NCBI RefSeq assembly: GCF_037042905.1
Contig: NC_087250.1
Coordinates: forward strand, 11,286,001 to 11,350,000
From: Lytechinus pictus
Taxonomy: Eukaryota
Reading direction: 5' to 3'
DNA: 64,000 nt
A program made the position numbers and the translations under genes. Positions 12,960-59,939 of this stretch are shown in pieces. The notes under the pieces are model-generated. The model worked only from the letters and a program-made list of their open reading frames with translations, did not search any database and was not told where the DNA came from. The first letter of the stretch is position 1; each line of letters starts with the position of its first letter.

Positions 12960-13100
12960 TAGCTTAGATTTTATGATTTCACAAAGTGCAGTTTATGTAA
13001 CTGTACCAGATCTAGATCCACGATGAAATAGTAATACTTAATCTTGGTTTTACAGACTTTCTCACGAAATCAGTGTTTTACTGCAACTACTTTATTTAGC
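12960..13100 (+). mobile_element. Partial copy (right end) of the Kolobok-like MITE embedded in satellite
   Basis: Matches 15600-15740 (agcttagattttatgatttcac...ctgcaactactttatttagct) and has the same satellite junction. Confidence 0.75.
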
Positions 13101-13569: not shown

Positions 13570-13840
13570 TATTTGCTGAGAAATAAGAAAAATAAGCGCG
13601 GATTCGGTCACTTCCGTCGAGTCTTTATTCTAGCAATAGTAATACACAGTTCCACCTGTGCCTATCTATGTTGGCGATCTTCAGTGTGATCGTTTTTCAG
13701 CTTAGATTTTATGATTTCACCAAGTTAAGTTCATGTAACTGTACCAGATCTAGATCCACGATGATATAGTAATTCTTAATTTTGGTTTTACAGACTTTCT
13801 CACAAAGTCAGTGTTTTACTGCAACTACTTTTATTTAGCT
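13570..13840 (+). mobile_element. Partial copy (right two-thirds) of the Kolobok-like MITE embedded in satellite
   Basis: Matches 15485-15740 and ends tttagct|ttaagatgagg, returning to satellite. Confidence 0.75.
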
Positions 13841-15354
13841 TTAAGATGAGGAAATGATAAAGAATTACAAGAATATGAAAAGAATAAGGAATATTTTTGA
13901 AAAACGTACTTAGAAACGTACTTTAAATTATTCGTATGGGGATAGAGGTTGGTCTGATTTGAAATGAGTAAATCTAGATGATCGACACATTTTGTTGTCA
14001 TTGCACTAAATATCATAGGATGTTTTCGTACTTATAATGTTGGTTAATCAAGGTGACAGTAAATGTACGTTGTGTTTAATGTATCTGATTGCATGCAGAA
14101 TTTTTTTTCCAATGATATATAGGAATAGACAGAAATAAAGCTTATTGAAATTCCTTTAATGAATAGTCCAAAGTACATTAACATACAAATACATTAAGGC
14201 GTATACTTACCAGCTGTCAAATAATATAAGTAAAAAGAGACAGAATAACAAGAATATAAAAATATTAAGGAACATTCTAGAAAACGTACTTGAAAACGTA
14301 CTTGGAACTATTTGTATTGTTTCAGAGGTTGGTCTGATTTGAAATAAGTAATTTTAGAAAATAAAAAAGTATAATTGTTTTATTGTCAGTACACTAAATA
14401 TCAATGGATTTTTTTCGTACTTAAACTCCGGGTTAATCAAGGTGACATTACGTTGTATTGAACATATCAAATTTCATGAATTTTTTTTTCCATTGATGTA
14501 TTGAATAGACAGGAATCAAGCTTTATATTGACATTCCTCTAAGGAATATTCCAAAGTACATTAAAAAATTAATACATGAACGTGTATACTTACGGGCTGT
14601 CAAATAAGAATAAAATCAAGAATATGAACACATTAAAGAACATTTTCGAAAACGTATTTGAGTCGTACTTAAAACTATTCGTATGGTGTTAGAGGTTGGC
14701 CTGATTTTAAATATGTAATTTTAGAGAATCAAAAAATAGAATTATTATATTGTCATAAGACTTTCTATCAGTAAATTTTTGCTTGTACTTATACTGTAGT
14801 TATGAAGGTGACTGTTCGTTGTGTTTAATATATCTGATATCATGAAGGAATCTTTTTCGTTGATATATTGAATATTCAGAAATCAAGCTTATAGACATTT
14901 TTTAAAGAATAGTAAAAAAAAATACATTAACATTAAAATGCATTAGGGTGTATATTCACATTCTGTCAATTAAGATGAGGAAAAAAGAGAAAGAATGACA
15001 AGAACTTAAAGAAGGTAATGAATATTTTCAAAACCGAACTTAGAAACGTGCTTGGAACTATTCGTATTGTTCTAGAGGTTAGTTAGATTTAAATAAGTAG
15101 TTTTTGATGATTGAAAATTATAATTATTTTATTATCATTCTATTAAATATCAATTGATTTTTGTTCGTACTTCTACCATGGTTAATCAAGGTGATTGTAC
15201 GTTGTATTGAACGTATCTGATTACATGAAGAAACTTTTTCCGCTGATATATTGAATGCACAAAAATCAATCCTATTGACATTTCTCTAAAGAATAGTCGA
15301 AAATACATTAACATATAAATGCATTAAGGTGTATACTCACATGCTGTCATTTAA

Positions 15355-15740
15355 AGATAAATGCCAGTTGTGGTAACGATCTCAAAATGTTCTTTTTACA
15401 GAATCTAATATAATGACCCCCCCCTAGTTTTTGTTAGTATGAATACAAAATTGAGCTAAAGGATTTTGGAATATATTGCGTAATTGCGGAGAAATAAGCA
15501 AAATAAGCGCGGATTCTGTCACTTCCGTCGAGTCTTTATTCTAGCAATAGTAATACACAGTCCTATCTGTGTTGGCGATCTTCAGTGTGATCGTTTTTCA
15601 GCTTAGATTTCATGATTTCACCAAGTTCAGTTTATGTAACTGTACCAGATCTAGATCCACGATGATATAGTAATACTTAATTTCGTTTTACAGACTTTCT
15701 CACGAAATCAGTGTTTTACTGCAACTACTTTAATTTAGCT
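15355..15740 (+). mobile_element. TTAA-inserting non-autonomous DNA transposon (Kolobok-like MITE, ~390 bp)
   Basis: Starts ttaa|agataaatgccag and ends tttagct|ttac. It interrupts the satellite motif ctgtcaa-TTAA-gatgagg. A homologous inverted copy lies at 42864-43256. Confidence 0.75.
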
Positions 15741-17651
15741 TTACTATGAGGAAATTATAAAGAATTACAAGAACATAAAAAGAGTAAGGAATAGTTTCGA
15801 AACGCACTTTGAACTATTCGTGTGGTTTTAGAGGTTGGTCTGATTTGAAATAAGTAATTTTGGAGAATTAAAAATAAAAATGTTTTTTTTTAGTACACTA
15901 AGTACAATAAATATCAATGGATTTTTGTTCGTACTTATACTCCAGGTTAATCAAGGTGACATTACGTTGTATTGAACATATCAATTTCATAAAGAATTTT
16001 TTTACATTGATGTATTGAATAGACAGGAATCAAGCTTTACATTGATATACCTCTAAGGAATAGTCCAAAGTACATGAAAACATTGATACATGAACGTGTA
16101 CATACTTACGGGCTGTCAATTAAGATGAGGAAAAAGAGAAAGAATAACAAGAATAAAAAACCATTGGGAAATATTTCCAAAAACGTACTTCGAAACGTAC
16201 TTTAAACTATTTGTGTGGTTTTAGAGGTAGGTCTGATTTGAAATAAGTAATTTTGGAGAATTAAAAAATAAAATTGTTTTATTGTCAGTACACTAAATAT
16301 CAATATAATTTTTTTCGTACTTATACTCTGGGTTAATTAAGGTGACATTAAGTTGTATTGAACAAATCAAATTTTATTTAAAAAAATTTCCATTGATGTA
16401 TTTAATAGACAGGATTCAACCTTAATATTGACATTCCTCTAAGGAATATTCCAAAGTACAATAAAATATTAATACATGAACGTGTATACTTACCACCTGT
16501 CAAATAAGATAAGGAAAAAGAGAAAGAATAACAAGAAAAAAAAAACATTGAGGAATATTTCCAAAAACGTACTTCAAAATGTACTTGGAACTATTTGTAT
16601 GGTTTTACAGGTTGGTCTGATTTAAAACAATTAATTTTGGAGAATTAAAAAATAAAATTGTTTCATTGTCAGTACACTAAATATCAATATAATTTTTTTC
16701 GTACTTATACTTCAGGTAAAGCAAGGTGACTGTTCGTTCTGTTTAATATATCTGATATCATGAAGGAATCTTTCTCGTTGATATATTGAATAGTGAGAAA
16801 TCAAGCTTATAGACATTATTTAAATAATAGTAAAAACATAAATTGAAATTAAAATGCATTAGGGTGTATATTTACATTTTGTCAATTAAGATAAGGAAAA
16901 GAAGAAAGAATAACAAGAATATAAAAAACCTAATTAGAAACGTACTTTGAACTATTCGTATGGTTTCAGAGGATGGTCTGATTAAAAAAAAAAGTAATTT
17001 TGGAGAATTAAAAAATATAATTGTTTTATTGTCAGTACACTAAACATCAATGGATTTTTGTTCGTACTTATACTCCGGGTTGATCAAGGTGACCTTACGT
17101 TGTATTGAACATATCTAAATTCATGATTTTTTTTTCATTGATATATTAAATACACAGAAATCAAACTTATTGACTTTCTTCTAAAGAATAGTCCAAAGTA
17201 CATTAAAATATGAATACCTGATCGTGTAAACTTACGCCCTGTCAAATAAGATAAGGAAAAGAGAAAGAATAACAAGAATATAAAAACATTAAGATTTTTT
17301 TTCGAAAACGTACTTTCAAACGTACTTGGAACTATTTCTATGGTTTTAGAGGTTTGTCTGATTTGAAATAAGTAATTTTAGATAATCGAAAAATATGATT
17401 ATTTTATTGTCATGACACTAAATATCAATAGTTTTGTTTTTAATTCATACTGTGGTTAATTAAGGTAACCGTACGATGTATTGAACATATCTGATTACAT
17501 AAAGAAACCTTTTCCTTACTATATTGAATAGATAGAATCAAGCTTTATATTGACATTCCTCTAAGAAATAGTCCAAACTACATTAAAATATAATATCATT
17601 TCGTTGTTTACCCACATTCTGTCAGTTAAGATGAGGAAAAGAGAAAGTATA

Positions 17652-19190
17652 ATTCACATGTTCATGTTCATGTTCAGTTCATTTATTCATTTCTAAAAAA
17701 GGCATTGAGTACAAATATATACATAGAAAAGACACTTCAAATATAAACATCAGTATTTTAAAGATGTAAACATGCAAAACACTACTTTAAATAAATACAG
17801 TGATATTCATGTATATTTAGGCCTGTGTACAGTAATAATATGAGAAACGAAAAGGAGGACTTAAAATAAAGCCAAAAGTGGCCTTGTGAGTTAAAGTCTT
17901 CTAAATTAATAAATTCTAATTTGGAGGCTACTTAGTATATACAATAATCAAAGCATATATGACAACTTAGGTTAAAAAGTAAGTGGATTAAGAAACGGAC
18001 ATACGGTATAAGATAAGCAAAAAAAAATATGGCAAATCGTCTACAATATTGTAACATAGCTGCAAAATTAGTAATATTTAGAAAAAAATATTGTTTTGAT
18101 TTTCTTTTAAAGAGGGAAAGAGACTTGCATGTGCGAACAAATTTCGGAATAGAATTCCAGATTGTTGGGAAGGTGAAACGTATAGCTTTTTGTACATATG
18201 ACTTTCCTACTTTCCATAAATGAAACAAATTACATATACGTGTAGTGTGACAATGTACAACATTTTTTTATACAAGACATTTTACTGATCTTATTTGGTA
18301 ATATTTTTTAAAGTAGAAAAACCCCAATATTGCAACTTGATATTGATAAAGGTGGAAAATATTCAAAGTATTAAGTTTACAGAATAAAAGAGTTGAGGGT
18401 GAAAGGTAATGACTGTTGGTGCATATACGAACTGCTCTCTTTTGTAATTTAAATAGTTTATCTAATTTGGATTTCATGCAATTACCCAAACAGCAATACA
18501 ATAAAGAATGTGTGATAATATTAATGAATTGTAAATAGAGAGTAATGCAGGTTTAGGAAGAAAACTTCTTAATTTGTACATAATTCCAGTACATTTCGAT
18601 ACTTTAGTAGTTAAATAGTTCATGTGTGAATCCCAATTCAAATTTTCATCAACATGAACAAAAACAAACAACTTTAGACTTAGATAATTGGATTGAATTA
18701 ATACTTAGAGTAAGATCATTACATATATTGCTTGCATTAGATAATTTGTTATGAAAGTATATAAACGAGGATTTATCAATGTTTACCACCAGTTTGCTGG
18801 CTTTAAACCATCGGGATACATGTAGTAATTCAGAATTAATGTTTTCATTTATATATTTAAAGTCTGGTTGGGTATAAAAAAGTGTAGTTATCGTCTGCAT
18901 ACATTATGAAATCAAATTTACTAGATGACATAACAATATCGTTTTCGTAAACGAGAAAAAGCAAGGGACCTAATATCGAACCTTGGGGGACTCCATGTTC
19001 TCCATAACTAAGCTATAAGAAGATGATTTATTGTTAAAGTTAGTAAATTGATAACGATTATGTAAATAATTTGTAAACCAGATAAATGGAAGCCCACGTA
19101 CACCATAATATTGTAATTTGGTTAACAAAATATTGTGATCTACTATATCAAATGCCTTGGAAAGGTCAATGAATATTCCTACTAACTCAT
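17652..19190 (-). mobile_element. LINE B, 3' part (RT pseudogene, 3' UTR and tandem-repeat tail), CR1/L2 group
   Basis: Minus-strand translation gives GIFIDLSKAFDIVDH, GVPQGSILGPLLFL, MYADD, LQKRAVRI and IWNSIP across several frameshifts. The tail reads aataaatgaactgaacatgaacatgaac at ~17655-17690. Confidence 0.9.
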
Positions 19191-20804: not shown

Positions 20805-22725
20805 GCTAGGTGCCGCTGATCATTCTTGACCGGCGCCGATCTAGATTTGGTTGGCAATAGGCCCTTCTTCATTATTCTACCGGTGCCGATTTAAATTTAG
20901 GTGGCGCCGGTTAAGATTCAGGAAGCGGCAATTCATAATCGACTGGCGCCGATTATTCTTGACTGGCACCGATTTGGATTTAGGTGGAGCTAATTATTCT
21001 TGATCGGCGCTGGTTAAGAACTCATGCAGGCAGCGTCGATTTTTCTTTACCGGCGCCGAGTTATAACCAGATGGCGCCGATTATTCTTGTCCGGCGCCTA
21101 TTTAGATTTAGGTGGCGCTGATTATACATCCTTGATTGGCATCGGTTAAGACTCTGGCAGTGCCGATTTTTTTCTTGACTCGCGCCGATTTATAACCAAA
21201 TAGCGCTGATTATTCTTGCCCGGCGCCGATTTAGATGTGGAGCTGATTATTCTTGATCTGCGCCGGTTAAGCCTCTGGCAGCGCCGATTTATAACCAGAT
21301 GGCGCTGATTATTCTTGTCTGGCCCCGATTTAGATTTAGGTGGCACTGATTATCCTTGATCGGCGCCGGTTAAGAACTCAGGCAGCGTTTTTGTCTCACC
21401 TGAATAGCAGAGTGAGACTATAGGCGCCGCTTTTCCGATGGCGGCGGCGGCGGCGTCAACACCAAATCTTAACCTGAGGTTAAGTTTTTGAAATGACAGC
21501 ATAACTTAGAAAGTATATGGACCTAGTTCATGAAACTTGGCCATAAGGTTAATCAAGTATTACTAAACATCCTGCCTGAGTTTCATGTCACATGAGCATG
21601 GTCAATGGTCATTTAGGGTCAATGAACTTAGACCATGTTGGGGGAATCAACATCAAAATCTTAACCTAAGGTTAAGTTTTTGAAATGTCATCATAACTTA
21701 GAAAATATATGGACCTAGTTCATGAAACTTATACATAAGGTTAATCAAGTATCACTGAACATCCTGCATGAGTTTCACGTCACATGACCAAGGTCAATGG
21801 TCATTTAGGGTCAATGAACTTTGGCCGAATTGGGGGTATCTGTCGATTTACCATCATAACTTTAAAAGTTTATAGATCTGATTCATGAAACTTAGACATA
21901 ATAGTAATCAAGTATTACTGAACATCCTGTGCAAGTTTCAGGTCACATGATCAAGGTCAAAGGTCATTTGGGGTCAATGAACTTTGGTCAAATTGGGGTA
22001 TTTGTTGAATTACCGCCATAACTTTGAAAGTGTGTTGGTCTAGTTCATAAAACTTGGACATAATAGTAATCAAGTATCACTGAACATCCTTTGCGCATTT
22101 TAGGTCACATGACCAAGGTCAAATGTCAATGAACTTTGGCCATAATGGGGGTATCTGTTGAATTACCATCATAACTTAGAAAGTTGATGAATCTTTCTCT
22201 TGAAACTTGGACATAAGAGTAATCAAGTATCACTGCACATCCTGTGCGAGTTTCAGGTCACATGATCAAGGTCAATGGTCATGTAAGGTCAATGAACTTT
22301 GGCCACGTTGGGGTATTTGTTGAATTACCATCATACATTATCTCTATAAGTGTATGGGTCTAGTTCATAAAACGTAGAAATAAGAGTAACCAAGTATCAC
22401 TGAACATCTTGTGCGAGTTATAGTAGTTTTCAAAATCAGCCCTGCTGCTATATTGAATCGCGTGATGCAGGTGAGACGGCCAGAGGCATTCCACTTGTTT
22501 TTTCTTTACCGGCGCCGATTTATAACCGAATGGCGCCGATTATTCTTGTCCAGCGCCGATTTAGATTTAGGTGGTGCTGATTATCCTTGATTGGCGCCGG
22601 TTAAGACTCTGGCAGTGTCAATTTTTCTTGACTTGCGCCGATTTATAACCAAATAGCGCTGATTATTCTTGTCCAGCTCCGATTTAGATTTAGGTGGCGC
22701 TGATTATTCTTAATTGGCACCAGTT
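20805..22725. repeat. GC-rich minisatellite of ~20-bp ggcgccgatt-cored subunits, interrupted by HINE copy 2
   Basis: Repeated ggcgccgatt/ggcgctgatt followed by attcttg, tagatttagg, tataacc or taagactc variants on both sides of 21388-22500. Confidence 0.85.
21388..22500 (+). mobile_element. Non-autonomous Helentron-like element (HINE), copy 2
   Basis: Reverse complement of 11719-12850: ttttt-gtctcacctgaat-agcag-agtgagac, (GGC)n, tandem core units, atgcaggtgagac (22465-22477), ending cttgttt inside a T tract. Confidence 0.8.
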
Positions 22726-27639: not shown

Positions 27640-28498
27640 CTAAACAATCAATAAGATATTTTGGAGCCACTGCATGGAGGCACTGATAAGTTACTTAAAC
27701 ATTACACTGGACTCGGAGCCAATGTAGTAATTTTATATAGGTGTGATAGGTGTGATGTGGGAATGTTTTTTTTAGTACGGGTGACTAGTCGTGCTGCAGA
27801 GTTTTGAATTACTTGTAATTTGTTAATTTGGGAATCGGGCATCCTATAGAGTAAACTACTGCAGTAATCTAAATGACACATTACAAGAGCCTAGACAAGC
27901 TGCTTGGTAGTCTTTGCATCTAAGAATTGACGAACTCTACCAAGTTTACATGGAGCAAAAGATGCTGATTTACATTTTGCAGAAACAAACTTGTTAATGA
28001 CCATATTTTCATCAAATATCACACCCAGGTTTCTGGCTGTATATGTGGGCATAATTGATGATGTATCAAACTTAACAGCTGGAAGTTTCATACTTCTGCG
28101 AAAATGAGATGTCAGATGTAAAATCTCTGTTTTCTGATCATTCAATTTCAGACCATTTGCTGTGGACCACTGTTTGATCTCCCTTACACATTTTTCTACT
28201 TGGGAGATTGCATCATCAATGTTACGTGGTTTAAAAGAAGCATATACTTGCGTGTCATCAGCATAACAAATCCCAGATAATCCATTACACGCTATCACAT
28301 CATGTAGAGGAGATGAGAACATGGTAAATAACAGCGGACCTACCACTGAACCTTGGGGTATGCCTATACAAGGCTTGTGAACTGAAGATTCTAACCCGTT
28401 TATTACTACTCTCTGTTTTCTTTGAGTCAAATATGATTCAAACCACTTATAAGCAAGGCCCGTAATGCCGAACCTCACTTTCAACCTCTGCAATAATA
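27640..28498 (-). pseudogene. LINE A, RT core (C-terminal half)
   Basis: ORF 27891-28544 contains GIPQGSVVGPLLF, YADDTQ, LKLNDQKTE and ARNLGVIFD. Downstream frames show DYCSS, LQVIQNSAARLV and LHWL. Confidence 0.92.
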
Positions 28499-28644
28499 AA
28501 GCAATATTGACTGGCCTGGGGACGATACGACATATATCGCCCAAACTAGATTTATATCACCCGAGTCGAAGACGAGGGTGATATAAATCTAGTGAGGGCG
28601 ATATATGTCCTTTTGCCCCCAGGCCAGTCAATATTGCTATTATT
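28492..28644. repeat. ~150-bp terminal hairpin of the Crypton element
   Basis: gcaatattgactggcctgggg...tagatttatatcaccc, loop gagtcgaagacga, gggtgatataaatcta...ccccaggccagtcaatattgc. Confidence 0.92.
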
Positions 28645-28965
28645 AACCAAATCAGACATCTAGAGCTTGTACGCGGAATTTTGACATTCAAAGTAAATTT
28701 AGTAAAACTCACCATTATTGAAGATTGCAGTCTTGAGTATTACAACACTACTGTAATCAGATTGAAAATCGATATCCTGCCAATTCAAAGTTCAAACTCC
28801 AATCGATATCAAAAGTCATGAAGGAAAATTTCTTCAACGATGAGAAATGCAACGAAAAAAACTGTTTAAAGTTTGAACTTCAGATAACAATTAGTAACAT
28901 GGGATTCGCAAAAGTCCAACAATTAAAATCAACAAGTCTATTTACAGTGTCCCATTTTCACGAGA

Positions 28966-29351
28966 CTAATTGTTGTAATAGTTTATAGTCACCGTGCAAT
29001 TTTGGAGCAGAAATGGAGTTTGCTGAACTTGCATCCTTTGACTATGAGTGTTAGTTGTAGTCGTGCTTCTGTTTATGATGTTTCCGGCTGAAGAAGCATT
29101 TGAAGGAGGAGCTGTGTTCATATCCAACGGTTGCAAAACATCCTGTATGTTGCGTACCTGTATTTCTTCAGTGACTCTTATTTCTGAGTGAACAGAATAA
29201 ACAGATAGCTGCGAATTGGGTAATATTAGATCCCGATCTACCTCATCAAAGTTTAGGCCGAGATCATTGTCCACTTCATTCACTGTTTGATGGATTACGC
29301 TTGGCTGACCTGCATCCTGAACTCTATCAAAAGTTATAATATGTGGGTTGA
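28966..29351 (-). pseudogene. Crypton ORF, low-complexity C-terminal tail
   Basis: Joins 33965 in frame (CDRVDF-NPHIITF) once LINE D is removed and ends LQNCTVTINYYNN. Confidence 0.75.
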
Positions 29352-29663
29352 GCGCGTGAGTGTTGCTCCTCAGCTTGTGCCTAACTTCTGACTTTTTTAT
29401 ATGTTTCTGATATGAGTGATTGTCTCTACTGTGAACCAAGTGGAAGGGACAGTATCAAGGAAGTTACAGGACAATTTTTAGTAGTATCTTCATTTTATTA
29501 TGTGAGTAGTTGTGTTTTCTATTTCACAACATTGAACTTGCTTAAAAGGCACTGGCCATTTTGAACAGCAACCATATATATAGGCCTACACATTATAGCC
29601 TGAGGTGGTCAAGCTGAACTTGAATCAAAAGCTGTCTATTGTTTCCAAACAATAGAACCCCAA

Positions 29664-32354
29664 ATGACCATGGCACTGACCAGCTTAGTGACCGCTGGTG
29701 TCATCCTACTGTTATGTGACACAACTGTATCGAGTACTTCACATACATATGATTATGTAGCGAATGAGCATATACCTAGGCACAATATATGGAAATCTAA
29801 TGGCAAATACTGCGGCAAACACTCGTTTTATTACCCTAACTCGGTTGCCACGTTCCAAACACTTCTTCTACAAGCAGGAGATATAAGTCCTAACCCAGGT
29901 CCTAATGAAAATGATAGACAACTTGAATATTACCAATCACAAACCGGAAGAATCTCACAACCCGATTCAGACTATAAATATATATATTCTCGAGAGGAGC
30001 TATATAATCTAAACCCTCTTCATCGTTACTCGGGCTGCAAGCAAAGGCTTTCGCGGCCAATTTGGGAAACCATTAATAGTCTCGGTATTGGCAACACAAA
30101 GAAAACTAGACGAGGAAAAGGGGGAAGGGCTGTCAGACCATTGCCTGTACATGCATCTACAAACTCTCCTGATGATGATTCTAACATTGTTGGACGCCCT
30201 CTAGGATCTGCAGAGATTGCCAATTACAACTCCAATATGTGCCTGAAATGTCGGAAATCAATCCACCTAAATCAGAAGAGTATCACCTGTGTGGGCTGCA
30301 AATCTCTGTGGCACCTGAAGTGCACCAATGTACCACTCTCAAGGTATGACGACGGATCCACTAATTCTGGGAATTGGGAATGCTTCAGATGTGACCACCA
30401 ATCTGATGAAGACCAGCAATACAACCAGGATAGATGTCAACGTGAATATCCAATTAAAATTTCTACTAAAGGACTCAAGATTGCTCACATTAATATTCAT
30501 AGTCTCCTAGCTAAACATGACCATCTTAAAGAGAAATTAGTCCACCGGCCATTTGATGTCTTTACTGTATCAGAAACTTTGTTAGACGGTAGTGTAGTTG
30601 AAGCGGAGATACATCTGAATGGATTTACTATTGAGAGAGCTGATAGAAACCGTCATGGTGGAGGGGTAGCTGTGTATGTTTCGAATGAACTGGTCTATAC
30701 TCGCAGATTAGATTTAGAAATTGAAGGTATTGAGTCGTTGTGGGTAGAAGTTATATTGACAAACTCAACTCATATTCTTATAGGGACGTTCTACCGACCC
30801 CCGAGTTCAAAGGTCGAGTATCAAATGTTAATTGGTCAGTCAATCACCAGAGCAACAAGTGAACAAAAAGAGTTATACATTCTTGGTGATTTTAATTGGG
30901 ATATGTACTGTAGAGACTCTAAGTTTGTTAAACAGCTATGCAACCAGAATTACCTGAAGCAAATGATTAATTTCCCAACTAGGATTACAGAAACTAGCAC
31001 AAGTCTGATTGATCTGATCTTGACAAATACCCCCCAAAATGTATGTGAAAGTAAAGTACTCTCTGAAGGATTGAGTGACCATAGTCTGGTTTATGTAGTT
31101 CGGAAAATGTTCAAACCTAAAATACCACCAAAAATAGTACAGTTCAGATCTTACAAGAAGTTTAAAGAAGCTGATTTTATTAATGATCTTAGAAGTGCTG
31201 ACTTGAACTACTACCTGGGCAACCCAGATTTCCATGTAGCTTGGAATTCATGGAAATCTGGCTTCCTTAAAGTATGCGAAAAGCATGCACCGTGTATAAC
31301 TAGGAGAGTCAGGGGTGAAAAGACTCCATGGGTTACAGAAGAATTCATTGACCTGTCAAGAAATCGAGACAGACTGAAACTGAAGGCAGAACAAAGTAGG
31401 TCATCTGCAGATTGGAAACAGTATCGTTCAGTTAGAAATCATGTCAACAACCTGCGCCAAACACTAAAGAAAGGCTATTACCAGAGTAGTATCTTAGAAA
31501 ACAGAAACAACTCTGCCAAACTATGGAAAGTATTGAAAACCTTGACAACATGTGATACTAAATTTGCCACAGACCAGCTCATTGTAAATGGAGATCAAGT
31601 GTCTGACACCCTTGACATGGCCAATGAATTCAACACATACTTTGTATCTGTAGGTGCCAGTTTGGCTTTAAATTTTACCACAGGGGTAGAATGTAGTATT
31701 GACGAGTTACTTACCTGTATAACTAAGCCTACCCCTGGTACTAAATTTGTCTTTGAACAGTTTGTGGAACAAAACGTATCAAATATCATGAAGATGCTGC
31801 AAACATCCAAAGCAAAGGGATTGGATGGTCTTGATACTGTGCTTCTAAAAGCAGCCTCTCCATTGATTTGTACTCACCTCACTTCACTCTTTAATCGCTC
31901 TCTAGATTCTGGATTTATCCCCGATGAATGGAAACATGCTAAAGTAACTCCCATTCACAAGGGAGGTGAGAAACATGACCCTAATAACTATAGACCTATA
32001 TCTGTCATCCCTGTGGTTATGAAAATATTCGAAAGACTAGTCCATACCCAGGTTCAAGATTACTTTTTGGAACATAATTTATTTGCTAGTGAACAGTCTG
32101 GATTTCGGAAGAACCACTCAACAAGCACAGTACTTACCTATTTGAGTGATCACCTGTACAAGCAAATGGATCAGGGTCGACTAACGGGAGTTGTGTTTTT
32201 AGACCTCAAGAAGGCATTTGACTCAGTCGACCATGATCTATTGCTTCACAAACTTACCATGTATGGAATTCTTGGAACAGAGTATAATTGGTTTGAAAAC
32301 TACCTGAAACATCGTTCACAGTGTACTTCTGTAAAAGATCTTCCTCTGATTTGA
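29664..32354 (+). CDS. LINE D polyprotein: hydrophobic leader, 2A-like motif, PHD finger, apurinic-like endonuclease, N-terminal RT
   Basis: GDISPNPGP at aa 72-80; C4HC3 PHD at aa 193-243; APE motifs HINIHSL, VSET, GGGVA, FYRPP, LGDFN, IDLI, SDH; RT motifs NYRPIS, QSGFR, FLDLKKAFDSVDH. Truncated by a frameshift. Confidence 0.92.
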   Translation: MTMALTSLVTAGVILLLCDTTVSSTSHTYDYVANEHIPRHNIWKSNGKYCGKHSFYYPNSVATFQTLLLQAGDISPNPGPNENDRQLEYYQSQTGRISQPDSDYKYIYSREELYNLNPLHRYSGCKQRLSRPIWETINSLGIGNTKKTRRGKGGRAVRPLPVHASTNSPDDDSNIVGRPLGSAEIANYNSNMCLKCRKSIHLNQKSITCVGCKSLWHLKCTNVPLSRYDDGSTNSGNWECFRCDHQSDEDQQYNQDRCQREYPIKISTKGLKIAHINIHSLLAKHDHLKEKLVHRPFDVFTVSETLLDGSVVEAEIHLNGFTIERADRNRHGGGVAVYVSNELVYTRRLDLEIEGIESLWVEVILTNSTHILIGTFYRPPSSKVEYQMLIGQSITRATSEQKELYILGDFNWDMYCRDSKFVKQLCNQNYLKQMINFPTRITETSTSLIDLILTNTPQNVCESKVLSEGLSDHSLVYVVRKMFKPKIPPKIVQFRSYKKFKEADFINDLRSADLNYYLGNPDFHVAWNSWKSGFLKVCEKHAPCITRRVRGEKTPWVTEEFIDLSRNRDRLKLKAEQSRSSADWKQYRSVRNHVNNLRQTLKKGYYQSSILENRNNSAKLWKVLKTLTTCDTKFATDQLIVNGDQVSDTLDMANEFNTYFVSVGASLALNFTTGVECSIDELLTCITKPTPGTKFVFEQFVEQNVSNIMKMLQTSKAKGLDGLDTVLLKAASPLICTHLTSLFNRSLDSGFIPDEWKHAKVTPIHKGGEKHDPNNYRPISVIPVVMKIFERLVHTQVQDYFLEHNLFASEQSGFRKNHSTSTVLTYLSDHLYKQMDQGRLTGVVFLDLKKAFDSVDHDLLLHKLTMYGILGTEYNWFENYLKHRSQCTSVKDLPLI

Positions 32355-32373
32355 AAAAAAAGTACAAACAGGA

Positions 32374-33283
32374 GTGCCTCAAGGCTCAATCTTGGGGCCT
32401 CTCCTGTTCACTATAATGGTGAATGACATGCCCAATGTACTTAAGAAATGTAAGATCATGCTCTATGCTGATGATACTGCATTAATGTACAGTGCTAAAT
32501 GCACTGAAGAAATTGAAACAGAAATCAATGCTGATCTTCAGAGAATAAGTCAATGGCTAATATTAAATCGACTTACATTAAACCCTGAAAAGTCGAAATT
32601 CATGTTATTTGGTACCTCAAACAAACTAAAAAAATGCAAATCCCTTAAATGTGCAAGTTGATAATCATGCCCTTGAAAGAGTTTCAAATTTTAAACACCT
32701 GGGCACGTGGTTGGACGAGTCCCTCACCTGGCAAAAACAAGTTGATGAGATGAGCAAAAAGATTGGGTCACGTATTGCCTTACTAAGTAGACTAAGAAAG
32801 TACTTAACTATCGATAGTGCCAAACTCCTAGCTAATGTATTGATAACACCTCATTTTGACTACTGCAGTCCTTCCTGGGCAAACTGTTCACAATACGTAA
32901 AGAATGTTCTCATAGCCCAGCATAAGAAAATGGCAAGACTTGTCCTTAGATGCAATTGTATGACACCTACTGTTGAGGTATTGTCACAACTGAAATGGGT
33001 AAACATTGAAGAAAGATGGAAATTCAACAAATGTAAATTAATGTATAATGCCCTGAATGGAGAGGGTCCTAAATATATTTGTGATATGTTTACTAAAAGT
33101 AATAGTGTCCACACTCACAGTACGAGGGGTGCCACCTCACAAGGCCTGTTGGTGCCTATGGTCAAAACACAGATGGGGAAAAAAGCTTTTCTCATGAAGG
33201 GTCACTCTTGTGGAACGGACTTCCTTCAGCTCTTAAAAATGCAGCAACCAAAGAAGCATTCACCACCTTATACTGGAGATTAG
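32374..33283 (+). pseudogene. LINE D RT C-terminal portion (frameshifted pieces)
   Basis: PQGSILGPLLF, YADDT, LNPEKS, FKHLG and FDYCS in two ORFs (32374-32661, 32651-33283). Confidence 0.9.
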
Positions 33284-33964
33284 CAAAAACTCGTGAGGGA
33301 TTGTAATTACTTGTTTATGCAGTTGTTAGCTTGCCAGGGAATGTAAATCATTTGAATAGCAATCTTATATAATACTATACTATATGTAACATGCAGTCAC
33401 TATATATCTACATTTTATTTACTTATATCATATGCAATATTTAATGTGCTGTGTAAAATAAATGTATATAATTGTTATTTAACTAGAATAATATGATGTA
33501 GTCGAATGAATATTGATAATAACCACTCTGTAGTATATAAGTGTAATACATCTATAAGTAATTTATGTATCCGATATACATATATATATATACTCATGGT
33601 TCTGTTCCTATTCTTTGTATGTTAGATCGATTTCTAGATTTACCCTTCCATTGTCACTGAATTGATAAATTTTTAAGTATAAAAACGTAGAAATCTATAA
33701 TAATGAAAAATACATACCTATTACCGGTAATTTTTCCTTGTTTTTCCTGTCAACTTCCAATACTGCTTCCTTTCTCAAGAACTCAAATCATTTTTCTCTC
33801 TTCGTATTACAGTGTAACAATGTCGACTTTTAATGTGTTGTATAAAATGTGTTCTTTTGATTGTTTTATGTATATATGTATTGTGCAGGGCCCTGGTTGA
33901 CAACAGTGTTTAAACCACTGAACAGGCTACCCTGGGTAAAGAAGACGAATAAAAAAAAAAAAAA

Positions 33965-34668
33965 AATCAACACGATCACAATTTTCATGCGAGGTTTTGT
34001 TTGATGTGTTCAGACTCACAGATGGTGCAGCTTGAGGCTGAGCTTCACGTACTCCAATGGCACGAGATAATGCATCTGACCTGTTCATCTTTTGGTTTCT
34101 AGACACACGGCCAGCGTAACTTGCGAGGCTAGATTGATTGTTGTGTCACTAACTTGACAAATTTCTCTGTCTTCAAACCTTTCCTTGTCAAGTATTCTAA
34201 TGCTTGTTGTTCTTACACAGTGATTAGTGTACTTCTTTGACAGTTTTGCTTTTTGTGGTAAGCTCTTCATCATATTACCAAGAGTGTTCTTCCCCATTGG
34301 TGTTGTGGTGTACCATAGGCCCGATTCAGGACGCGTTTGCTTGGGCGTTTGGAACATAAATTCACAATCATCATTCAATTTAGACATGTATGTCTTAAAT
34401 GACGCGACTGGGCAACGTGGATCACCTGGAGTAGCATACATGCGAGCACCATCTACTCTGGAACTTTGATTATCCTCTCTAGTTTTTTTTAGTTAGTTCA
34501 TTTACAGTTTGGGTAACGTACTCACGTTTATTTGCATCTTTTTTCAGTTGAAAATCAGCCTTTTTCAAGGTTCTTAAGTTCTCTCTACCTCTGCGACAAA
34601 AGTAGAGACTTAACTCGAACCAAACCTTCTCACTAAGTGTTACAGGTGTTTCATCCTCTTTGAAGTAA
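33965..34668 (-). pseudogene. Crypton tyrosine recombinase catalytic domain (DUF3504-like), frameshifted
   Basis: VWFELSLYFCRRGRENLR (catalytic Arg region), RCPVASF, WY..TPMGKNTL, YTNHCVRTT (HxxR) and a frameshifted SLASY (catalytic Tyr). Confidence 0.88.
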
Positions 34669-36633
34669 GGCGTGTTGTCAAAAGTGTGCGTGCGTCTTTA
34701 CCTTTATATTCTACGGCGAACCCGCTGAGCGTGCCATTGTCCATTTTTCTTTCCTACGGGTCAGTGCTCTTGCCATTCAAGACGCCAGCGTGCCCTTTTG
34801 CAGCGAAAACGGAAGCGTTCGCTTTTATCTTTTCTTCTGACATGCTTCGGTTGGCTCTCCGATAATATGTTTTTGCATTAGCGCCCTCTATGTTCACGAT
34901 ATCGGCGTTTTAGGCAAACTATTGAACGTCCGATCTCTAGTCACTGATCTGAATATCATTGTGTCCTTGTATCGGTGTGTCTAGTCCATTGGGGGTACAT
35001 TTTCCAAAGTTACGCTTTCACAATTTCTTTTTATAGTTTTTCGTTTCAGGTTTCAGTAGTGACAAAGTTCAATTAGATTTAGATTTGATTTTTTTTAAAT
35101 AGAACGAGTTCTTTTATTTTGAAGAATATACCGTTAAGACACCGACTTTCTAAAAGTAAATGTTCAGGCGCGGGTAAGATTTTTTTTCATCACACTGAGC
35201 CCACACAGTCAGCATTGTCGGGTGAAAAGGAAAAATATGGAATTGTCCTTAACTTCTTTGTAAAAGAAATGCAAAACCCTTTGCAAAAGATGCAATATAA
35301 ATCATACCTGGGTCCCAAAATGATGGCATTTAAATATCTACATTGAAACGCTATACTGTGACAAAAAATAATAAACTCATAAAATGCAAGCGTTTTTGTG
35401 GGAAAATGGACAAGGGCATCGTTGAAATTCATATTTGAGCTAAACATAGGCCTATATCTAATTTAGCCAAAGTGCACAACAATTTTACTCTTATTATACA
35501 TTATGTTTAAACATTAACATGCTAGAAACTTATATATTCACACATAATACAGATGTCGTGCAAAACAAACGAATAAAATATCATTAATTTGAACTTTTAA
35601 AAATTAAATTGGATGCTCAAGCAGTTATATCGGTCATTGTTGATTAAATGCACAATTCTTGAATTTCATTGCCCGAAATTTAGAACAAGTAAAAAGAAAA
35701 AGTATTTTCGTTACTTTGTAAGACCATTTCAAACATCTTTACTTTCAAACGAAATCAAAAGCACTTAACAATTTAGTATAAAAATTATCAAATTTGAGGT
35801 AGTCTTGACCATGAATTGAGTTGAATGTTTATAAAGGAATTATAGCGTATTTTAATGAATCCCATTCTAAACTTTGAATGACCGATGTCTCCGGGGAAAA
35901 AATATCGCGTGAATTAAAATGCAAATTAACACATTTAAGTGACTCTGACATGAAATTGGACATGAAAACCTATATTATCTTTTTACCTGGGATCCGTCTT
36001 TATTCTCTTATCAATTTCCCCTGTGATCTAGAGTACTATGTGACCAAGTGTTCTTGATTACCATCCAGCAGACACAGAACCGAAGGGGGTCTGGGCTGAA
36101 GCCTCCACACTCTTTTTCCTCCAAATAGCGTACAAAACGTAAAAAGTACCATGATTTTATGCATGGTGATCCCCTTCAAAACCGTTCGGCGGTTGGGGAA
36201 GGCTTAATTATTTCTTTCAATTTTTAAGTTCTACTCACAATATTTAATTTTGTCAACTTAATTTTAATGGCTTCTTTTTTTTCATCCAACTTCATTTCTT
36301 CCTTTGAATTTTTCTAAACCTTTTCTATACTTATTTTTTTAACCTTCACGTTTGACTTATACAGTAGTGCATATTGCCGTTGATTTCTTCTTCCTATCAA
36401 ATATCTGAATTTATCTGCAATATGTGTGTGTCAAATTATTGTAAATTAGATTCCCAGTGTCTAAGGTAAACATAATTTACCGACGTAAAGTTTGTAATAC
36501 GAAAGCCTCTTTGGCCTAGTTTCCCTTCCAACTTTGTACTTCACTTCTTAATCGTATAGCTGTATTCTGTATAGCTTGCAAATTTAAATACTTTTACACA
36601 AAAAAAAAATCAATAAACGTTCAGGAAATGGTA

Positions 36634-36797
36634 ATGCCTCGGTCACATTTGCTCTCCGGCGGCCGTACGGCGAGTCGAAAACAGCCGTTTTATTCATTTT
36701 TATTCAAACAACCTATATTTAGCTGGTACAAAAACTGTTGAAACGACTGTTTTCGACTCGCCGTACGGCCGCCGTAGAACAAATGTGACCGAGGTAT
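36634..36797. mobile_element. 164-bp palindromic MITE flanked by TA
   Basis: ta|atgcctcggtcacatttgctctccggcggccgtacggcgagtcgaaaacag ... ctgttttcgactcgccgtacggccgccgtagaacaaatgtgaccgaggtat|ta. Confidence 0.88.
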
Positions 36798-36934
36798 TAG
36801 GCATACTAGATCAAGAAGGATGGAGTGTATGCTGGCGCAGATCCTGCCGAATTAACACAATACAATCTAATAGGCGCCGTATTTATTTTGAACAATAGTT
36901 GGCCTCTCAAAAGTATTGTGGTCTATTCTGTGAC

Positions 36935-37016
36935 CTCTACTATTGTAAGCGCTTTGGGCCTAATGGGAAAAGCGCAGTACAAATAATAAGTAATAATAAT
37001 AATAATAATAATAATA
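36935..37016 (+). mobile_element. Probable 3' tail of an L2-like LINE/SINE
   Basis: tgtaagcgctttggg...aaaagcgcagtacaaat stem followed by (AAT)n. Confidence 0.5.
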
Positions 37017-38729
37017 CTAAAAGAAGTCAGTGGGTCTATATTCTGCACCTGGAGGGTACAGTAGTGATACCGGGGGGGGGGGGGGTGGCATCCGGCCCTT
37101 GCGCCCTCCCCCTTTGAGAGCCATTATCAATTGCTAATGTAAATATGCCATTTTTACACAAGTGTGCCCCCCTTTGAAACTCACAGCATGTATTTTAATG
37201 AGGATATGTCGTTCATGCACAAGTGAGGACCTTCACTTTCGCCTGGTAAACACCCCTTTTCCAAATATATTTGATTATTAAAATGCACGGAGAGATGATA
37301 GGCAAATAATATAACTCGAATGTTAACATTAAGAGTAGACCTATAAGGAGGGAAGTTACATGGTTAATTAAAAATGTGTTGATAAAATATCAGTGGAACG
37401 TTATGTTATAATTTGCTGCGCCAAACAGGTTTTATGTAAAATTGCTCTTTATAAAGACAAGTATTAAACTACATTAAATGTCGAAATGCTGAGATGTATA
37501 ATGGAAACCATATTAAGATACACATTACGAAAAGAACCAAAATCAAGGCTCTAGTATGGGGACAAAACGAGAACAAGAAAACTACCCATTTGATGCTAAT
37601 TTTGATTCCCCGAAAGCCGGACGTTGAAAATGACCTGGGCCAGTGCATTGTTAGCTGTATTTAATGGGAGAGCTCGGCTTACCCCATTGTCAAGGTAGAT
37701 TTAAATTACCCCATTCTTGATTGGGGAGATTACCCTATTGTTGAACATAGAGGTGGTCTGACTGGTGGCGGATTTCAATAGAAGGAAGACCCCTTGATTG
37801 GTGGGGGTATTTCAATGGGAGATTACCACTTTGTCAGCGCGGGTGACTGTCTTAATACTTTGATGTGTCCCCGATGTGTCTTTTAATCGAACACCGTGTT
37901 TGCAACTAATCCCAATTAATGAGACTATTTGGCATCAAAATGAAAGTCTAACTTCCATCCTTTTCATAGATTTCGTTTGAAAATACTTACAGTGTACGTT
38001 TATAAGGTAAACTTGAAATATGAGAAGGCGCTTTATAATATGTAAACCAAATATGATTTGTTCATAAGTATCTTTATAATAAATGTTTTCAAAATCGAGT
38101 TTCATAGAACAGATGTATAATACTCGATTTAATAACAACCATAATATTTCAAAGTCATCGAGAGGGTAAGTATCAGACTAAATAATGCAAGCGTGATTTG
38201 TTCAGGCGCTGGTAAGATTTTTCTTTTCAATCCCACTGAGCCTGATCTCTTTTTTTTTTCATACAAAAGCCGGGATAGACATGTGGTTAAATAAGCATTA
38301 ATTGGATTCGTGCTTTCGGGAAAACAGTATTTATTTACGAGCAAGAACATTGAAGTGTTCAGTGTTGGCACCGGTTGGCACCACTGCGATGAAGTTAATT
38401 CGAATTGTGTTTTTGAACAGGATCAAAATAGTAGAAGTAAAAACGTTAAGCTTATTATATATATATGTATTAATCATTCGGATTTATGCATTATTCTGAA
38501 CTACACGTGTCTATAATTGAATGATTTATATGTATTAAATCAGTGGCATATTTTCAGGTGGGGGCACATTTTCCCTTGAAAACTTTTTAGACAAAAAAGT
38601 TGTCACTAAAATAGGGCATTTTGACCTGTTTAAAACGTGACGTTAAAAAATTAAGGTCTTTACTTGTGTTTGAACAACATATTCATATTACAAATATTTG
38701 CTGTGACTCTCAAAAAGTGAGTACACTTG

Positions 38730-40090
38730 CAGGGGCGGAACCAGCCTTCGCCAAAGGGGGGGGGGGTGTCTTTTTAACCACATACCCCCGATCAGCCGCT
38801 CAAATATGATTTTTGTTTGTTTAAATGAATGTAAAATAATCTCATAAGCCTTATTTAAATAGTGCGAGCGCGAAGCTCGAGCTATTGTTTAAATTATTAT
38901 TCCATGTATTTTGTCCTAAAATGGCATTCTGGCAATGCTTGTGATCCTAAACGAGATGAGTAAATTTAATATACGCTTTGATCATTCTGATAAAAAAAAG
39001 ATATGTTAACGGCTGATTGCAGTTAGCCATGAAGACGTTACATATTTCAACAGTCAAATAACGCGAGCGCGAAGCGCGAGCTGAAAATTTTGACCTTTCT
39101 ACCCGAAGAATTGAAATTCTAAGCAATTTTTGTAATCATGAAAAAGTTGAATATATAACAAAGCAATTGATGCGAGCGCGAAGCGGAAGCGGAAAATTCT
39201 AGATTTGTAGGAAAATTGTGAGTGGATATGGATCACAGTTAAAAAGGAGCTGATATGTTTCATTATTATTACTTTGAGTTTGACATACACGTAGGACCGG
39301 GACATTCTAAGAACATTATTCTATCGTATGAAAATTATGACTGTCTTCCTATTTCTCTTCCTATCAATGCGCTAGATGAAACTTGTCGATATTCCATTCT
39401 GAAAAAGGAACAATTTAAAGCGCTTTTGTAATAATGAATAAGATGCATGAGTTAATATATTTTTAACAATCAATGTGCGCGCATATCGCCAGCCGAAAAT
39501 TGTTGATAAACTGTCATAAAATGGAGATTTTAAGTAGTTTGTTATAGAATTAATATTTAAATTTTTATAACTCACCAATCAAAATGCAAGCATGCAGCGC
39601 TAGCTGATACGTTTTTACAATCTGACATGAATAGGGATATTTTTATAAGTATATGGAATACAGGAAAATAATAGGTACCTGGAAATCAAATTTAGTGAGC
39701 GCGCAGCGCAAGCAGAAAATGTTTATATTCAGACAATAAAAAAGATATTTTTACAGAACACTTTTTTAAAATGAAAGTTCAATTTCCGAGCTGAAATATG
39801 TTATGTATATTGACTTCAAAATTTGATATTTAAAGTTCCATATATGTAAATCACCTAAAAGGTAATGCGAGCGCAAAGCACGAGCGAAAATTTTATATAA
39901 TGACATGAAAGATTTTGTTTTATTGTTTTCGAAGTCTTCCCCTCATCTTATTTATTCACTCGTTTTCTCCTCTCATGTTTACCATTTTTTCTCCCCTCTT
40001 TTTCCTTTTTTGGTCTTTCTTTCCCCCTTTTTTTGCTCCGCCAATAGGGGGAGGAGGGAGGGCGGACCCCTTGCCCCACCCCTGGATCCA
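38730..40090. mobile_element. hAT-like non-autonomous element with periodic gcgagcgcgaagcgcgagc motifs
   Basis: Left end caggggcggaaccag and right end ccccctggatcc resemble the termini of the element at 20194-22896. The right tip is damaged and no TSD is found. Confidence 0.6.
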
Positions 40091-40330
40091 ACTCTGGAAC
40101 AATCTACCAAAAAGTATTAAACAAGCAGGTTCAAGAGAGAAATTTAAATCCGTGTTAAAACCTTTTTTGTTAAATATAGCTTTCCCTCCGGATGTGAAGC
40201 CCCTCAATTGTTTACAGCCTACTGTGAACTGTACAACTACTTTATTTTTTGGTGAAATTCCTTCTCTCTCTATAATTTTTCCTTAGCGTTTAGATAAATG
40301 TTTTGTTCTAAGTGGTATACAAATAATGTA
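40091..40330 (+). pseudogene. Short LINE 3'-end fragment
   Basis: LWNNLPKSIKQAGSREKFKSVLKPFL resembles the CR1/L2 ORF2 C-terminus. Confidence 0.55.
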
Positions 40331-42115
40331 AATTAGTGGCGTGCGTTTCCCGATCTCCGTATCGAAATCAATATTAATGAGAGAGCGCAATTTCATTGTT
40401 TTCGCTCTAATGGGGGAGGGGAGGGGGAGAGGGTCAGTGTTCAATCAAGCAAAAGACGTAGGCCTATATGTGCATAAGTCCATGTCATTGGTGTAATGAT
40501 AAAGATGATGAATCTGATGAATTCTGTTTGTCGACGTTATAATAAAGTTAATACAATCAATATGATTCAGGCGTACACCGCTTTAACTGCATGGTATCAT
40601 GCATCCAGAAATCGAAATAGCCGATGTATTCAAAACGTACGTAGCCGGGATGGCATGCAGTTCGGATGTTACAGTACTCTAACATTAGAATAATCTCGTA
40701 TTACAAATGTCAATTTTGCGAAAATGCACACAAATTCATAACTTGATAGACTCTGGGGGATGATGTCGATATAAAAATCGCATCGACCTCGATATGCAAG
40801 CATGTTTGATACTGCGTCGGACTTGACAACCCGCAAAATCTTTTCCAAAATTAGATGAAGGCCATCCATTCTCATTCTTTTTAATCTAAATATAATCTAT
40901 GTATTTCAGGATCATGATATGAAAACCTTTTATAACAAACATGATAAAGGAAAAACGCGTCTCAAGTTATACATGGTTCATTGCCGCAAAATATACCAAT
41001 CATCTTCATTTGTTATCATTTAATCATCAACATTATCACTGATATTATTATTCGTATTATCATGTCCGTTAATATCACTTCAAAGTTATAATTATCATTA
41101 TATCATCATCACTGTTATCATCATCACCATCATCATTCATTCAGTATCTATTTCCAATCGTTCTCCAATATCAATTTTATATTTTATATAATTAAGAATA
41201 TATGAAAGGTAATAGTAATGATAATGGTGATGCTGGTAATCATGAACATTAGATCCGTTTTGTGAGATAATTTATGCGATTTTACACGCTAATCGCTACT
41301 CGATGATGGTGAAAGAAAGAAGTCGGGACGGTAGTTACTGTATACACGTACTTTATTACACTATAGTACAAAAGATTCCCCATCGGACGGGCCAACGGTC
41401 TTTTGAAATAGGTTTATCTATTGAAATTATGACAATAATCACGACAGCGGATATGGGGAACTATTCTCTGAGCGCCTCTCCCATTCATTGTTGTCTGTGG
41501 CGAACCCGTTGAGCGTGCCATTGTCAATGATTCTCTACACGGGTGAGTGATCTTGCTTTTTCATGATCATAGGCCTGGGCAATGACTAAGAACAGTTCGA
41601 TGAGTATCAATGCCAAGTAATCCTGAAAGGTCAATAATGTTAAATTCTCTTGCTGGAGAAGACTATATCATGGCCCTATTTGCTTTTGCTGTAGGCCAGT
41701 TGTGTACAACCTGATATAGATGATAAATAATAATTATCTTTCATCTATTTTAGAGTAATGATCTAATGTTAATATCATTCTACATAATCACCCTGAAGCT
41801 TACGGCCCCATATCTTCACCCGTGAGGTATTGAAATTTGAAGTTTAAATTATTGAACATCATGGCATCCTAGTATTGTACTGATTTTTACCATCACTGCA
41901 ATATAGATACAAACATAGAGTTAATTCTACTCACATTGATTTTACTTTAGAACAAATTCAACCCCCCCCCTTCCCTTCCCGCTACAACCTTTCTTTCATT
42001 CCCTTTCAATATTTCCTTACAAAAAATGATCCTAATTTCAATAACTATGATAATGACATATATGATTTGCTGTTGACGATAATGATGCTGCTGATGATAG
42101 TGATGATAATCAAAA

Positions 42116-42148
<33 letters not shown>

Positions 42149-42863
42149 ATGGTGAATGTGGTAGTGGTAGCCTTGGTGATTATGACAAATAAAAATACTG
42201 AAAGTTACGAAAGTCACACATTCAATGAATAATACCTAGAAACATACTTTTAGATGAAATAAAAATCACACACAATTTGTGCAACTTGTAAGCCTCCCAT
42301 TTAGTTTATTCTTATTTTTTTAACTGAATTGTGTCCGCTTATATTCCTTCTTGATGATAATTTAAAGCTTTTAAGTTTATAATTATATTGGTAAATCCCG
42401 GTCAGAAAAGTTCATGTCACCATTCCATTCCTGAGTACTATATAATATCAAGGAGATGATATCTCCTTGATTATATGAGCATGGCCCTAAAGTGATTGTG
42501 ATGTGATAGGTATGAAATCAAATGTGTTTTATTGGAAAATTTAGCCCTTTTCACACATTCTTTTTTTTCCAGCGATTTGGCGACCGATCAAAATGTCTGT
42601 GTATTTTGAATTGGAAACCATCTATCGGGACAGACTTCAAGATGTAGGTCTGAATAACATTGCAACATACTTCGTTTGGTGCTCAAAAGGTTATTTCTAA
42701 AATAGAACATCATCGAGAAATGGTGCTTGATTCATGACATCTGAAGAAAAAAATCCGATGACCACTGCACTTTTGTAAACATTTTAAAATGCTTGTTAAT
42801 ACTCGACAAAATTCAAAAGACAAAATTACGTATTATTTACCAAAGTTAATCGAAGAGTTTTAA

Positions 42864-43256
42864 AGAGAAATTCCAGTATTTGCAGTAAACACTGATTTCA
42901 TGAGAAAGTCTGTAAAACAAGGCTTAATTGTCAGTATATCATCGAGGATCTAGATCTGGTACATTACATAAACTGAACTTTGTGAAATCTTGAAATCTAC
43001 GCTGAAAAATGTTCACACTGAAGATCACCAACACAGATAGGCACACGTGGGACAGTGTATTATTATTGCTAAAATAAAGACCCGACGGAAGTTACCGAAT
43101 CCGCGCTTATTTTGCTTATTTCTCAGCAATTACACAATTTCTTCCAGAATCCTTTGGCACATATTTTTTATTCATACAAACAGACACTTAGGTGGTCATT
43201 ATATTAGATTCTGTAAAAAGTCATTTTTAGATCGTTACCAAAACTGGAATTTATCT
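42864..43256 (-). mobile_element. Kolobok-like MITE, same family as 15355-15740
   Basis: ttaa|agagaaattccag ... ctggaatttatct|ttaa. The internal sequence is a diverged reverse complement of the satellite-embedded copy. Confidence 0.8.
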
Positions 43257-59938: not shown

Positions 59939-59939
59939 T

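Follow-up and report, generated by a model that had tools for sequence, protein, structure and literature searches.

The CryptonA elements of animals, as presented by Kojima and Jurka (2011, PMC3212892), contain a single DUF3504-type tyrosine recombinase gene with no accessory domain, and one of them, CryptonA-2_SP, is given as 2263 bp. In that account no terminal repeats are reported for animal Cryptons, rows of the supplement carry 'n.d.', and neither 'hairpin' nor 'palindrom' occurs in the main text and six supplement files. Crypton transposition is without experimental demonstration, and a double-stranded circle is assumed in the text of a 2026 review (PMC13565253).

Comparable layouts occur in other mobile systems. 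In the recombination of integron cassettes, as PMC5027507 describes it, the attC site takes part as a bottom-strand hairpin marked by unpaired features, and replication resolves the outcome. DIRS-1, a tyrosine-recombinase element, carries near one end an 88-bp internal complementary region (ICR), described as exactly complementary to both adjoined termini, together with reverse transcriptase/RNase H, gag and long inverted terminal repeats (passages of PMC7192593). IS200/IS605 elements are said in PMC13565253 to have strand-specific subterminal hairpins, no target duplication and a single-stranded circle, with an HUH transposase and small hairpins at both ends.

A Crypton copy with features of each of these lies in 64,000 nucleotides of Lytechinus pictus (NCBI RefSeq GCF_037042905.1, contig NC_087250.1, forward-strand positions 11,286,001 to 11,350,000), the whole of which is here called the window. 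Its single recombinase gene and its size of about 2.3 kb are those of CryptonA, and it has the short direct repeat typical of Cryptons, here 7 bp. Unlike the published CryptonA elements, it combines this repeat with a 150-nt terminal hairpin and an internal segment that mirrors the predicted junction of its two ends. As in attC, an imperfect hairpin with strand-marking unpaired features stands 3' of a gene and is associated with a tyrosine recombinase (PMC5027507), but the unpaired features differ in kind: extrahelical bases in attC, G.A mismatches and GNA/GNNA loops in the Crypton. Its core is AATAATA, with no GTTRRRY/RYYYAAC consensus, and unlike an integron cassette it encodes its own enzyme and has no separate IntI/attI platform. 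Single-strand use is proven for attC (PMC5027507), whereas for the Crypton it is proposed here. The mirror shares with the ICR of DIRS-1 its position near one end and its complementarity to both adjoined termini, but it is imperfect, one half of it is a hairpin arm, and the Crypton has no reverse transcriptase/RNase H, gag or long inverted terminal repeats of its own. An earlier note on this DNA, made from its letters, had drawn the DIRS analogy, which thus holds for the layout and stops at the reverse transcriptase and the inverted repeats. With IS200/IS605 the Crypton shares strand-specific hairpin structure, the lack of a target duplication and, in the mechanism proposed below, a single-stranded circle, but not the HUH transposase or the small hairpins at both ends. 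The Crypton is neither a DIRS element nor an integron cassette, and its layout resembles both.

Extent, identity and decay of the element

The ends of the element are fixed by empty-site contigs, present in 3 of 4 runs, in which 28491 is joined to 46133 and 7 letters could belong to either side; these contigs possibly derive from other copies of the host LINE, and runs with a small share of the window's words were left out of the contig mapping. The element and its surroundings comprise:

28492-46139, minus strand: whole DUF3504-type Crypton copy including both 7-bp cores (empty-site joint and recombinase gene pieces)
28492-28498, plus strand: core AATAATA at the 3' (hairpin) end (letters and empty-site joint)
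46133-46139, plus strand: core AATAATA at the 5' end (letters and empty-site joint)
46116-46132, minus strand: 5' terminus of the Crypton, the partner of the mirror (sequence comparison)
46054-46065, minus strand: 11/12 copy of a hairpin-arm motif inside the 5' end, a candidate recombinase binding site (sequence match, p = 0.03)
45314-45788, minus strand: N-terminal part of the recombinase gene, residues 1-151 of protein P0001 (tblastn, 95-97%)
33966-34667, minus strand: catalytic part, residues 152-385 of P0001 (DUF3504, 3.7e-8, and tblastn)
28966-29328, minus strand: C-terminal part, residues 385-508 of P0001, and stop codon (tblastn, 87%)
29329-33965, plus strand: nested L2/CR1-type LINE with poly(A) tail, foreign to the Crypton (PHD, endonuclease and reverse transcriptase domains)
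34669-45311, no strand assigned: nested 10.6 kb insertion with TAA on both sides and imperfect terminal inverted repeats, foreign to the Crypton (alignments)
27891-28491, minus strand: host LINE reverse transcriptase gene, the part after the insertion, resuming beyond the Crypton from 46140 (RVT_1 6.9e-15, open frame, joint)

The nearest protein, P0001 (508 aa; source name KIAA1958-like, Lytechinus variegatus), has DUF3504 and Phage_integrase domains in a Pfam scan and aligns to the window in six pieces at 87-97% identity, all on the minus strand, from 45788 to 28969. In the window itself the DUF3504 match covers 34088-34492 (3.7e-8). The N-terminal part is broken by a 22-nt tandem duplication near 45542-45585 and the catalytic part by two frameshifts, near 34487 and 34146; with the 4.6 kb LINE and the 10.6 kb insertion besides, this copy is dead. 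Subtraction of the two nested insertions, summed from piece coordinates, leaves a native length of about 2.34 kb. Since the gene lies on the minus strand and the native element is this short, the hairpin marks the 3' end and the wide spacing of the termini is secondary. The earlier note had thus placed a Crypton here with the correct boundaries; what it called the left end is an element end, which in gene orientation is the 3' one, and its 17.5 kb separation is true of the present coordinates only, the native distance being about 2.3 kb before two later insertions.

Across a 56-sequence recombinase alignment, H300, R303 and Y335 are invariant and R177, K211 and H326 stand at 90% or more. We take these six, from motif knowledge, to be the catalytic residues, and their retention in the family would indicate an active element rather than a domesticated gene, the window copy itself being broken. 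A Pfam scan of the five recombinase pieces and P0001 finds no C-terminal accessory domain, own reverse transcriptase or DDE transposase; the reverse transcriptase matches in the window belong to the host and nested LINEs. Besides the internal mirror, the Crypton has no end-to-end inverted match that would count as terminal inverted repeats. By its protein and its ends the element is classed as CryptonA-type, an assignment drawn from DUF3504 and animal homologues. Summed contig depth is 8,000-18,000 in the bins holding the two ends (three runs) versus 100-130 in the coding bin 28977-29573, which hints at many short derivatives keeping both ends, although depth gives no copy number.

The host LINE's reverse transcriptase frame is open across the empty site of the Crypton, and an endonuclease-like frame of the same LINE, judged from translations only, lies at 52411-53514 on the minus strand. 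Broken gag/pol-like frames at 47194-51644, again from translations only, suggest an LTR retrotransposon apparently within the host LINE. The nested L2/CR1-type LINE is nearly intact, with a 916-aa frame, a hydrophobic start and a 3-bp repeat at its borders. The 10.6 kb insertion has no evident coding ORF and high contig depth at both ends, and it resembles a large non-autonomous PIF/Harbinger element, a placement based on the TWA target duplication that we take to mark that group. At 36632-36799 lies a hairpin element of 168 nt whose contig depth is very high and whose sequence bears no relation to the hairpin of the Crypton. Elsewhere in the window, a satellite of about 383 bp forms near-identical 765-bp higher-order units (1-11200, 13300-17500 and 59900-64000), and an inverted repeat pair at 11719-12774 and 21440-22499 (874 nt at 97%, 8.7 kb apart, with internal tandem structure) is possibly of foldback type.

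Hairpin and junction mirror

Inward from the core at the 3' end, on the plus strand throughout, the features are:

28499-28500, plus strand: two unpaired bases without a mirror partner, the register being ambiguous within the A run 28498-28500 (alignment and fold)
28501-28567, plus strand: outer (terminal) hairpin arm (alignment, fold)
28562-28576, plus strand: apex, with a GA/GA tandem mismatch and a GAA loop (28568-28570), on the strand antisense to the recombinase gene (fold, loop survey)
28571-28637, plus strand: inner hairpin arm, complement of the 3' terminus (alignment, fold)
28638-28644, plus strand: inverted internal core TATTATT (letters)
28645-28661, plus strand: mirror of the 5' terminus, 15/17 complementary to 46116-46132 (alignment, fold)

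The letters bear out the earlier note's account of AATAATA at both ends and of its inverted form inside. Left of the internal core, the complement of the terminus that the note had read there is confirmed by arms pairing across 28494-28645 at 86% over 153 columns; the fold has z = -17, and 0 of 200 shuffles folds equally well. Right of the core, the near-complement of the far terminus also stands: the reverse complement of 28645-28661 and the stretch 46116-46132 disagree at just 2 of their 17 positions, and this is the sole plus-strand site at three or fewer mismatches in the 64 kb window, the next best reaching 13/17 (4 mismatches). From base composition, such a match has a chance of 1.5e-7 at a fixed position, and 0.02 are expected in the window. 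In the fold, four further pairs extend the mirror pairing to 28666 after a 1-nt bulge.

Joining of the ends extends the fold, from -64 kcal/mol in the integrated form to -83 when joined, and the stem then runs through the core into the 5' end. The internal site thus matches the predicted junction, as the earlier note had held, with the amendment that the junction exceeds the mirror by 2 nt, two A's of 28498-28500 staying unpaired beside the core. A TA target duplication as the source of these two bases is rejected in the window because the empty site accounts for one 7-bp core only. Among the 15 of 907 contig joints listed there is no end-to-end circle junction, and the joints and loose ends listed include no strand-switch at the mirror and no loose end at the termini, although contigs drop rare forms. 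Excision to a circle is a putative step.

Recurrence in related families

Relatives were drawn as the best 80 of 393 confirmed metagenome loci, from an alignment of 56 of 121 recombinase proteins, and these 80 form 57 families at 80% nucleotide identity. The loci are presumably animal DNA, and metagenome contigs of repeats may be chimeric. Viral contigs gave 70 pattern matches, none of them confirmed as a relative.

Of these best 80 loci, 24 have a hairpin of 80-300 nt that lies 3' of the recombinase match and no more than 1200 nt away from it. Among their families with at least 600 nt downstream, 14 of 29 have such a hairpin versus 1 of 30 in the upstream control, and 15 of the 29 lack it by the same criterion. 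The mirror was sought in 24 sequences, the window and 23 loci, that have both a hairpin and 100 nt or more of upstream DNA, L025 being dropped with 7 nt; the 60 nt at the hairpin's inner foot were compared with the sequence's own upstream DNA against 300 shuffles in 2-mer blocks. An inverted match at p ≤ 0.05 is found in 18 of the 24, the window included, and the inverted score lies above all 300 shuffles in 9 of 24, versus 0 of 24 in direct orientation. By family, with the window left out, 9 of 14 testable families match; two matches, in L062 (an arm-like copy) and L069 (which includes flank), are not true terminus matches. The match is absent in 5 of the 14 hairpin families, two of which have less than 220 nt upstream. 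Without the anchor at the hairpin foot the test is weaker (inverted 9/30 families, direct 2/30).

The letters of the mirror are family-specific. When one member per family, chosen by length, is scored against all, its own upstream region is strictly top-scoring in 8 of 13 families, and of two near misses one was lost by one point to the window and the other to a sister family. Mirror and terminus agree at 16.2 of 20 positions within families versus 9.1 across them in 15 hand-anchored positives, a selected set that illustrates letter differences only. In six multi-copy families the 5' boundary, marked by differing flanks or the start of shared sequence, coincides with the mirror-matching segment. 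The junction again appears to exceed the mirror, by 2 nt for the L012 family and by 2-3 nt for the L068/L075 group, as read from invariant flank letters without empty sites and in contigs that may be chimeric. Mismatches between mirror and end are fixed, being identical across four L012-family copies. In 6 of 10 families (p < 0.05), arm-like motifs recur within the element, 45-130 nt from its 5' end.

Of the more distant hairpins tested in addition, that of L035 is positive (p = 0.007) and those of L073 (against L026), L029 and L031 are negative. L029 and L031 have short hairpins without the apex motif and without a mirror, and L073 has its hairpin 1.7 kb from the gene match, no 5' match and the motif on the opposite strand, and this hairpin may belong to a neighbour. 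Because these three deviate, the design is described as common and may not be universal. The earlier note had allowed that other copies might lack the mirror or that the hairpin might be an independent MITE; related families, for the most part, keep a mirror in letters of their own, and the hairpin sits 3' of the recombinase gene.

Some loci show further particulars. In L069 (1-70) the 5' flank resembles an arm of a related family's hairpin and could be taken for a mirror site, a hint from 60 nt of one contig that L069 may have inserted into another element's mirror. L044 has an inverted copy of a hairpin arm upstream of the gene (998-1086). The terminal arm of L012 carries the inner arm's letters at an internal loop where its sisters L013-L015 differ, through either arm conversion or an assembly artefact.

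One-strand structure and the enzyme

The hairpins are marked on one strand. Over 16 families, the window included, stem mismatches on the antisense strand are G.A in 62 cases versus C.T in 11, a bias that a binomial test overstates because tandem pairs are not independent; G.T versus A.C shows none (21 vs 22). In 13 of 16 families the apex carries a closed C-G(N1-2)A-G loop on the antisense strand, and in 0 of 16 does it lie on the sense strand. DNA mini-hairpins with loops of this type are described in PMC13037366 as owing their very high stability to a sheared G.A pair. Standard energy models, which miss the stability of sheared G.A mini-hairpins, rank the two strands of the window about equal (-63.8 vs -65.0) and do not favour the antisense one.

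An AlphaFold model of the enzyme is closest to Cre (Z 21, rmsd 3.1-3.3 over about 295 residues) and further from the integron integrase 2a3v (Z 16, rmsd 5.1, 264 residues). An IntI-like fold was sought in the model and is not singled out, and fold does not reveal substrate.

Proposed mechanism and alternatives

The feature is best explained as the recombination end of a CryptonA-type element. In gene direction the layout reads core, A, recombinase gene, A', core', B', loop, B, core. At the chromosomal stage the antisense strand, or an extruded cruciform, would fold B' on B, with core' pairing to the flanking core, and this folded hairpin site would recombine with the double-stranded 5' end to give excision. 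Once the ends are joined, A would pair with A', and the junction would then form an unbroken pseudo-duplex across the core, bulged by 2 nt beside it. In an integron, the outer stem of attC is completed by the 5' end that the cassette itself contributes once it is circular. The recombinase would then join the folded junction to an AT-rich, core-like target, probably by single-strand exchange completed by replication, as for attC. Because A would pair with A', the mirror is read as the opposite strand of the recombination site and not as a second site.

We consider it slightly more likely than not that the folded antisense junction strand, as a single-stranded circle or an extruded cruciform, is the substrate of the recombinase and that the mirror serves as the opposite strand across the core, as in attC. 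A mirror design kept in family-specific letters suggests movement via a folded DNA strand, like that of bacterial integron cassettes. Against this reading stand the Cre-like model, the 15 of 29 families without a hairpin among the best 80 of 393 loci, the 5 of 14 hairpin families with no mirror match, the weaker unanchored test, the deviating L029, L031 and L073, the folding energies of the window and the missing circle among the 15 of 907 joints; ordinary recombination between double strands would account for the perfect 7-bp direct repeat just as well. The hairpin replication origin that the earlier note had offered may also apply, for second-strand synthesis.

The classic double-stranded model, which is the published one (PMC3212892; PMC13565253), would have a double-stranded circle leave through the 7-bp repeats. 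On this reading the mirror would be a further site for the recombinase on duplex DNA, either a second one or an accessory one, with a part in synapse assembly, directionality or inversion of the Flp kind. The Cre-like fold and the perfect repeat suit it, as do the arm-like motifs that 6 of 10 families carry near the 5' end, as expected of binding sites, and Starships are described as moving with a circular intermediate. Yet double-stranded binding leaves the G.A mismatches and GNA loops of one strand unexplained, and we regard this reading as unlikely. Inversion between junction and mirror would also flip the apex, and of the 16 families 0 show this, though flipped copies might be dead ends; with the apex orientation fixed, free inversion is disfavoured, and with it the freely inverting second recombinase site of the earlier note.

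Somewhat less probable is a DIRS-like splint or template, in which a linear single strand is released, the mirror holds or restores its ends, the hairpin primes the second strand and a normal double-stranded circle integrates. Its geometry is that of the ICR in DIRS, whose complementarity extends to both termini and which PMC7192593 reports as essential for retrotransposition, and single-stranded phage origins are described as carrying mini-hairpins (PMC13037366). The Crypton, however, has no reverse transcriptase of its own, and the fixed mismatches in the four L012-family copies, together with the 2-nt bulge beside the window core, argue that the ends are not copied from the mirror, which also counts against the repair template that the earlier note had offered. 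A pure splint role of the mirror is possible.

The structure could instead act as RNA, as an antisense guide pairing with the junction. One-strand structure and junction complementarity would suit such a guide, and IS110 elements use a bridge RNA. RNA hairpins favour GNRA loops, whereas the loops here (GAA, GCA, GTTA, GTCA) suit DNA mini-hairpins; stems show no G.U bias (21 vs 22), and Rfam yields just three microRNA matches, far below cut-offs, so that we give this reading very little credence. Just as improbable is an origin as a by-product, whether by a fold-back that was duplicated once only or through a hairpin MITE of other descent next to the Crypton. This would account for the roughly half of families without a detectable hairpin but appears largely refuted by the cross-family match, since the outer arm is the element end itself, the mirror follows each family's own 5' end, and hairpins in the best 80 of 393 loci lie downstream in 14/29 families versus upstream in 1/30.

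Implications

A search of openly accessible literature found no description of a terminal hairpin or junction mirror in Cryptons. Within a known group of transposons, the anatomy is real and conserved and has apparently gone undescribed, and the proposed mechanism can be put to the test. For animal Crypton ends, formerly reported as featureless in the text of PMC3212892, this anatomy now supplies exact positions, and it gives curators a rule for locating Crypton boundaries. It also points to a candidate strand for the substrate, and the pairing it predicts is open to tests with short oligonucleotides and a natural, intact enzyme.

It is conceivable, though we lean slightly against it, that many animal Cryptons transpose via a folded single-stranded circle whose junction is completed by the internal mirror, a self-encoded eukaryotic parallel to the recombination of integron cassettes, with structure setting the site and letters differing by family. 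If true, this would add a eukaryotic member to the few tyrosine recombinases described as using folded single strands (IntI, XerC/D; PMC5027507), and it would bear on the former DNA targets of domesticated DUF3504 proteins.
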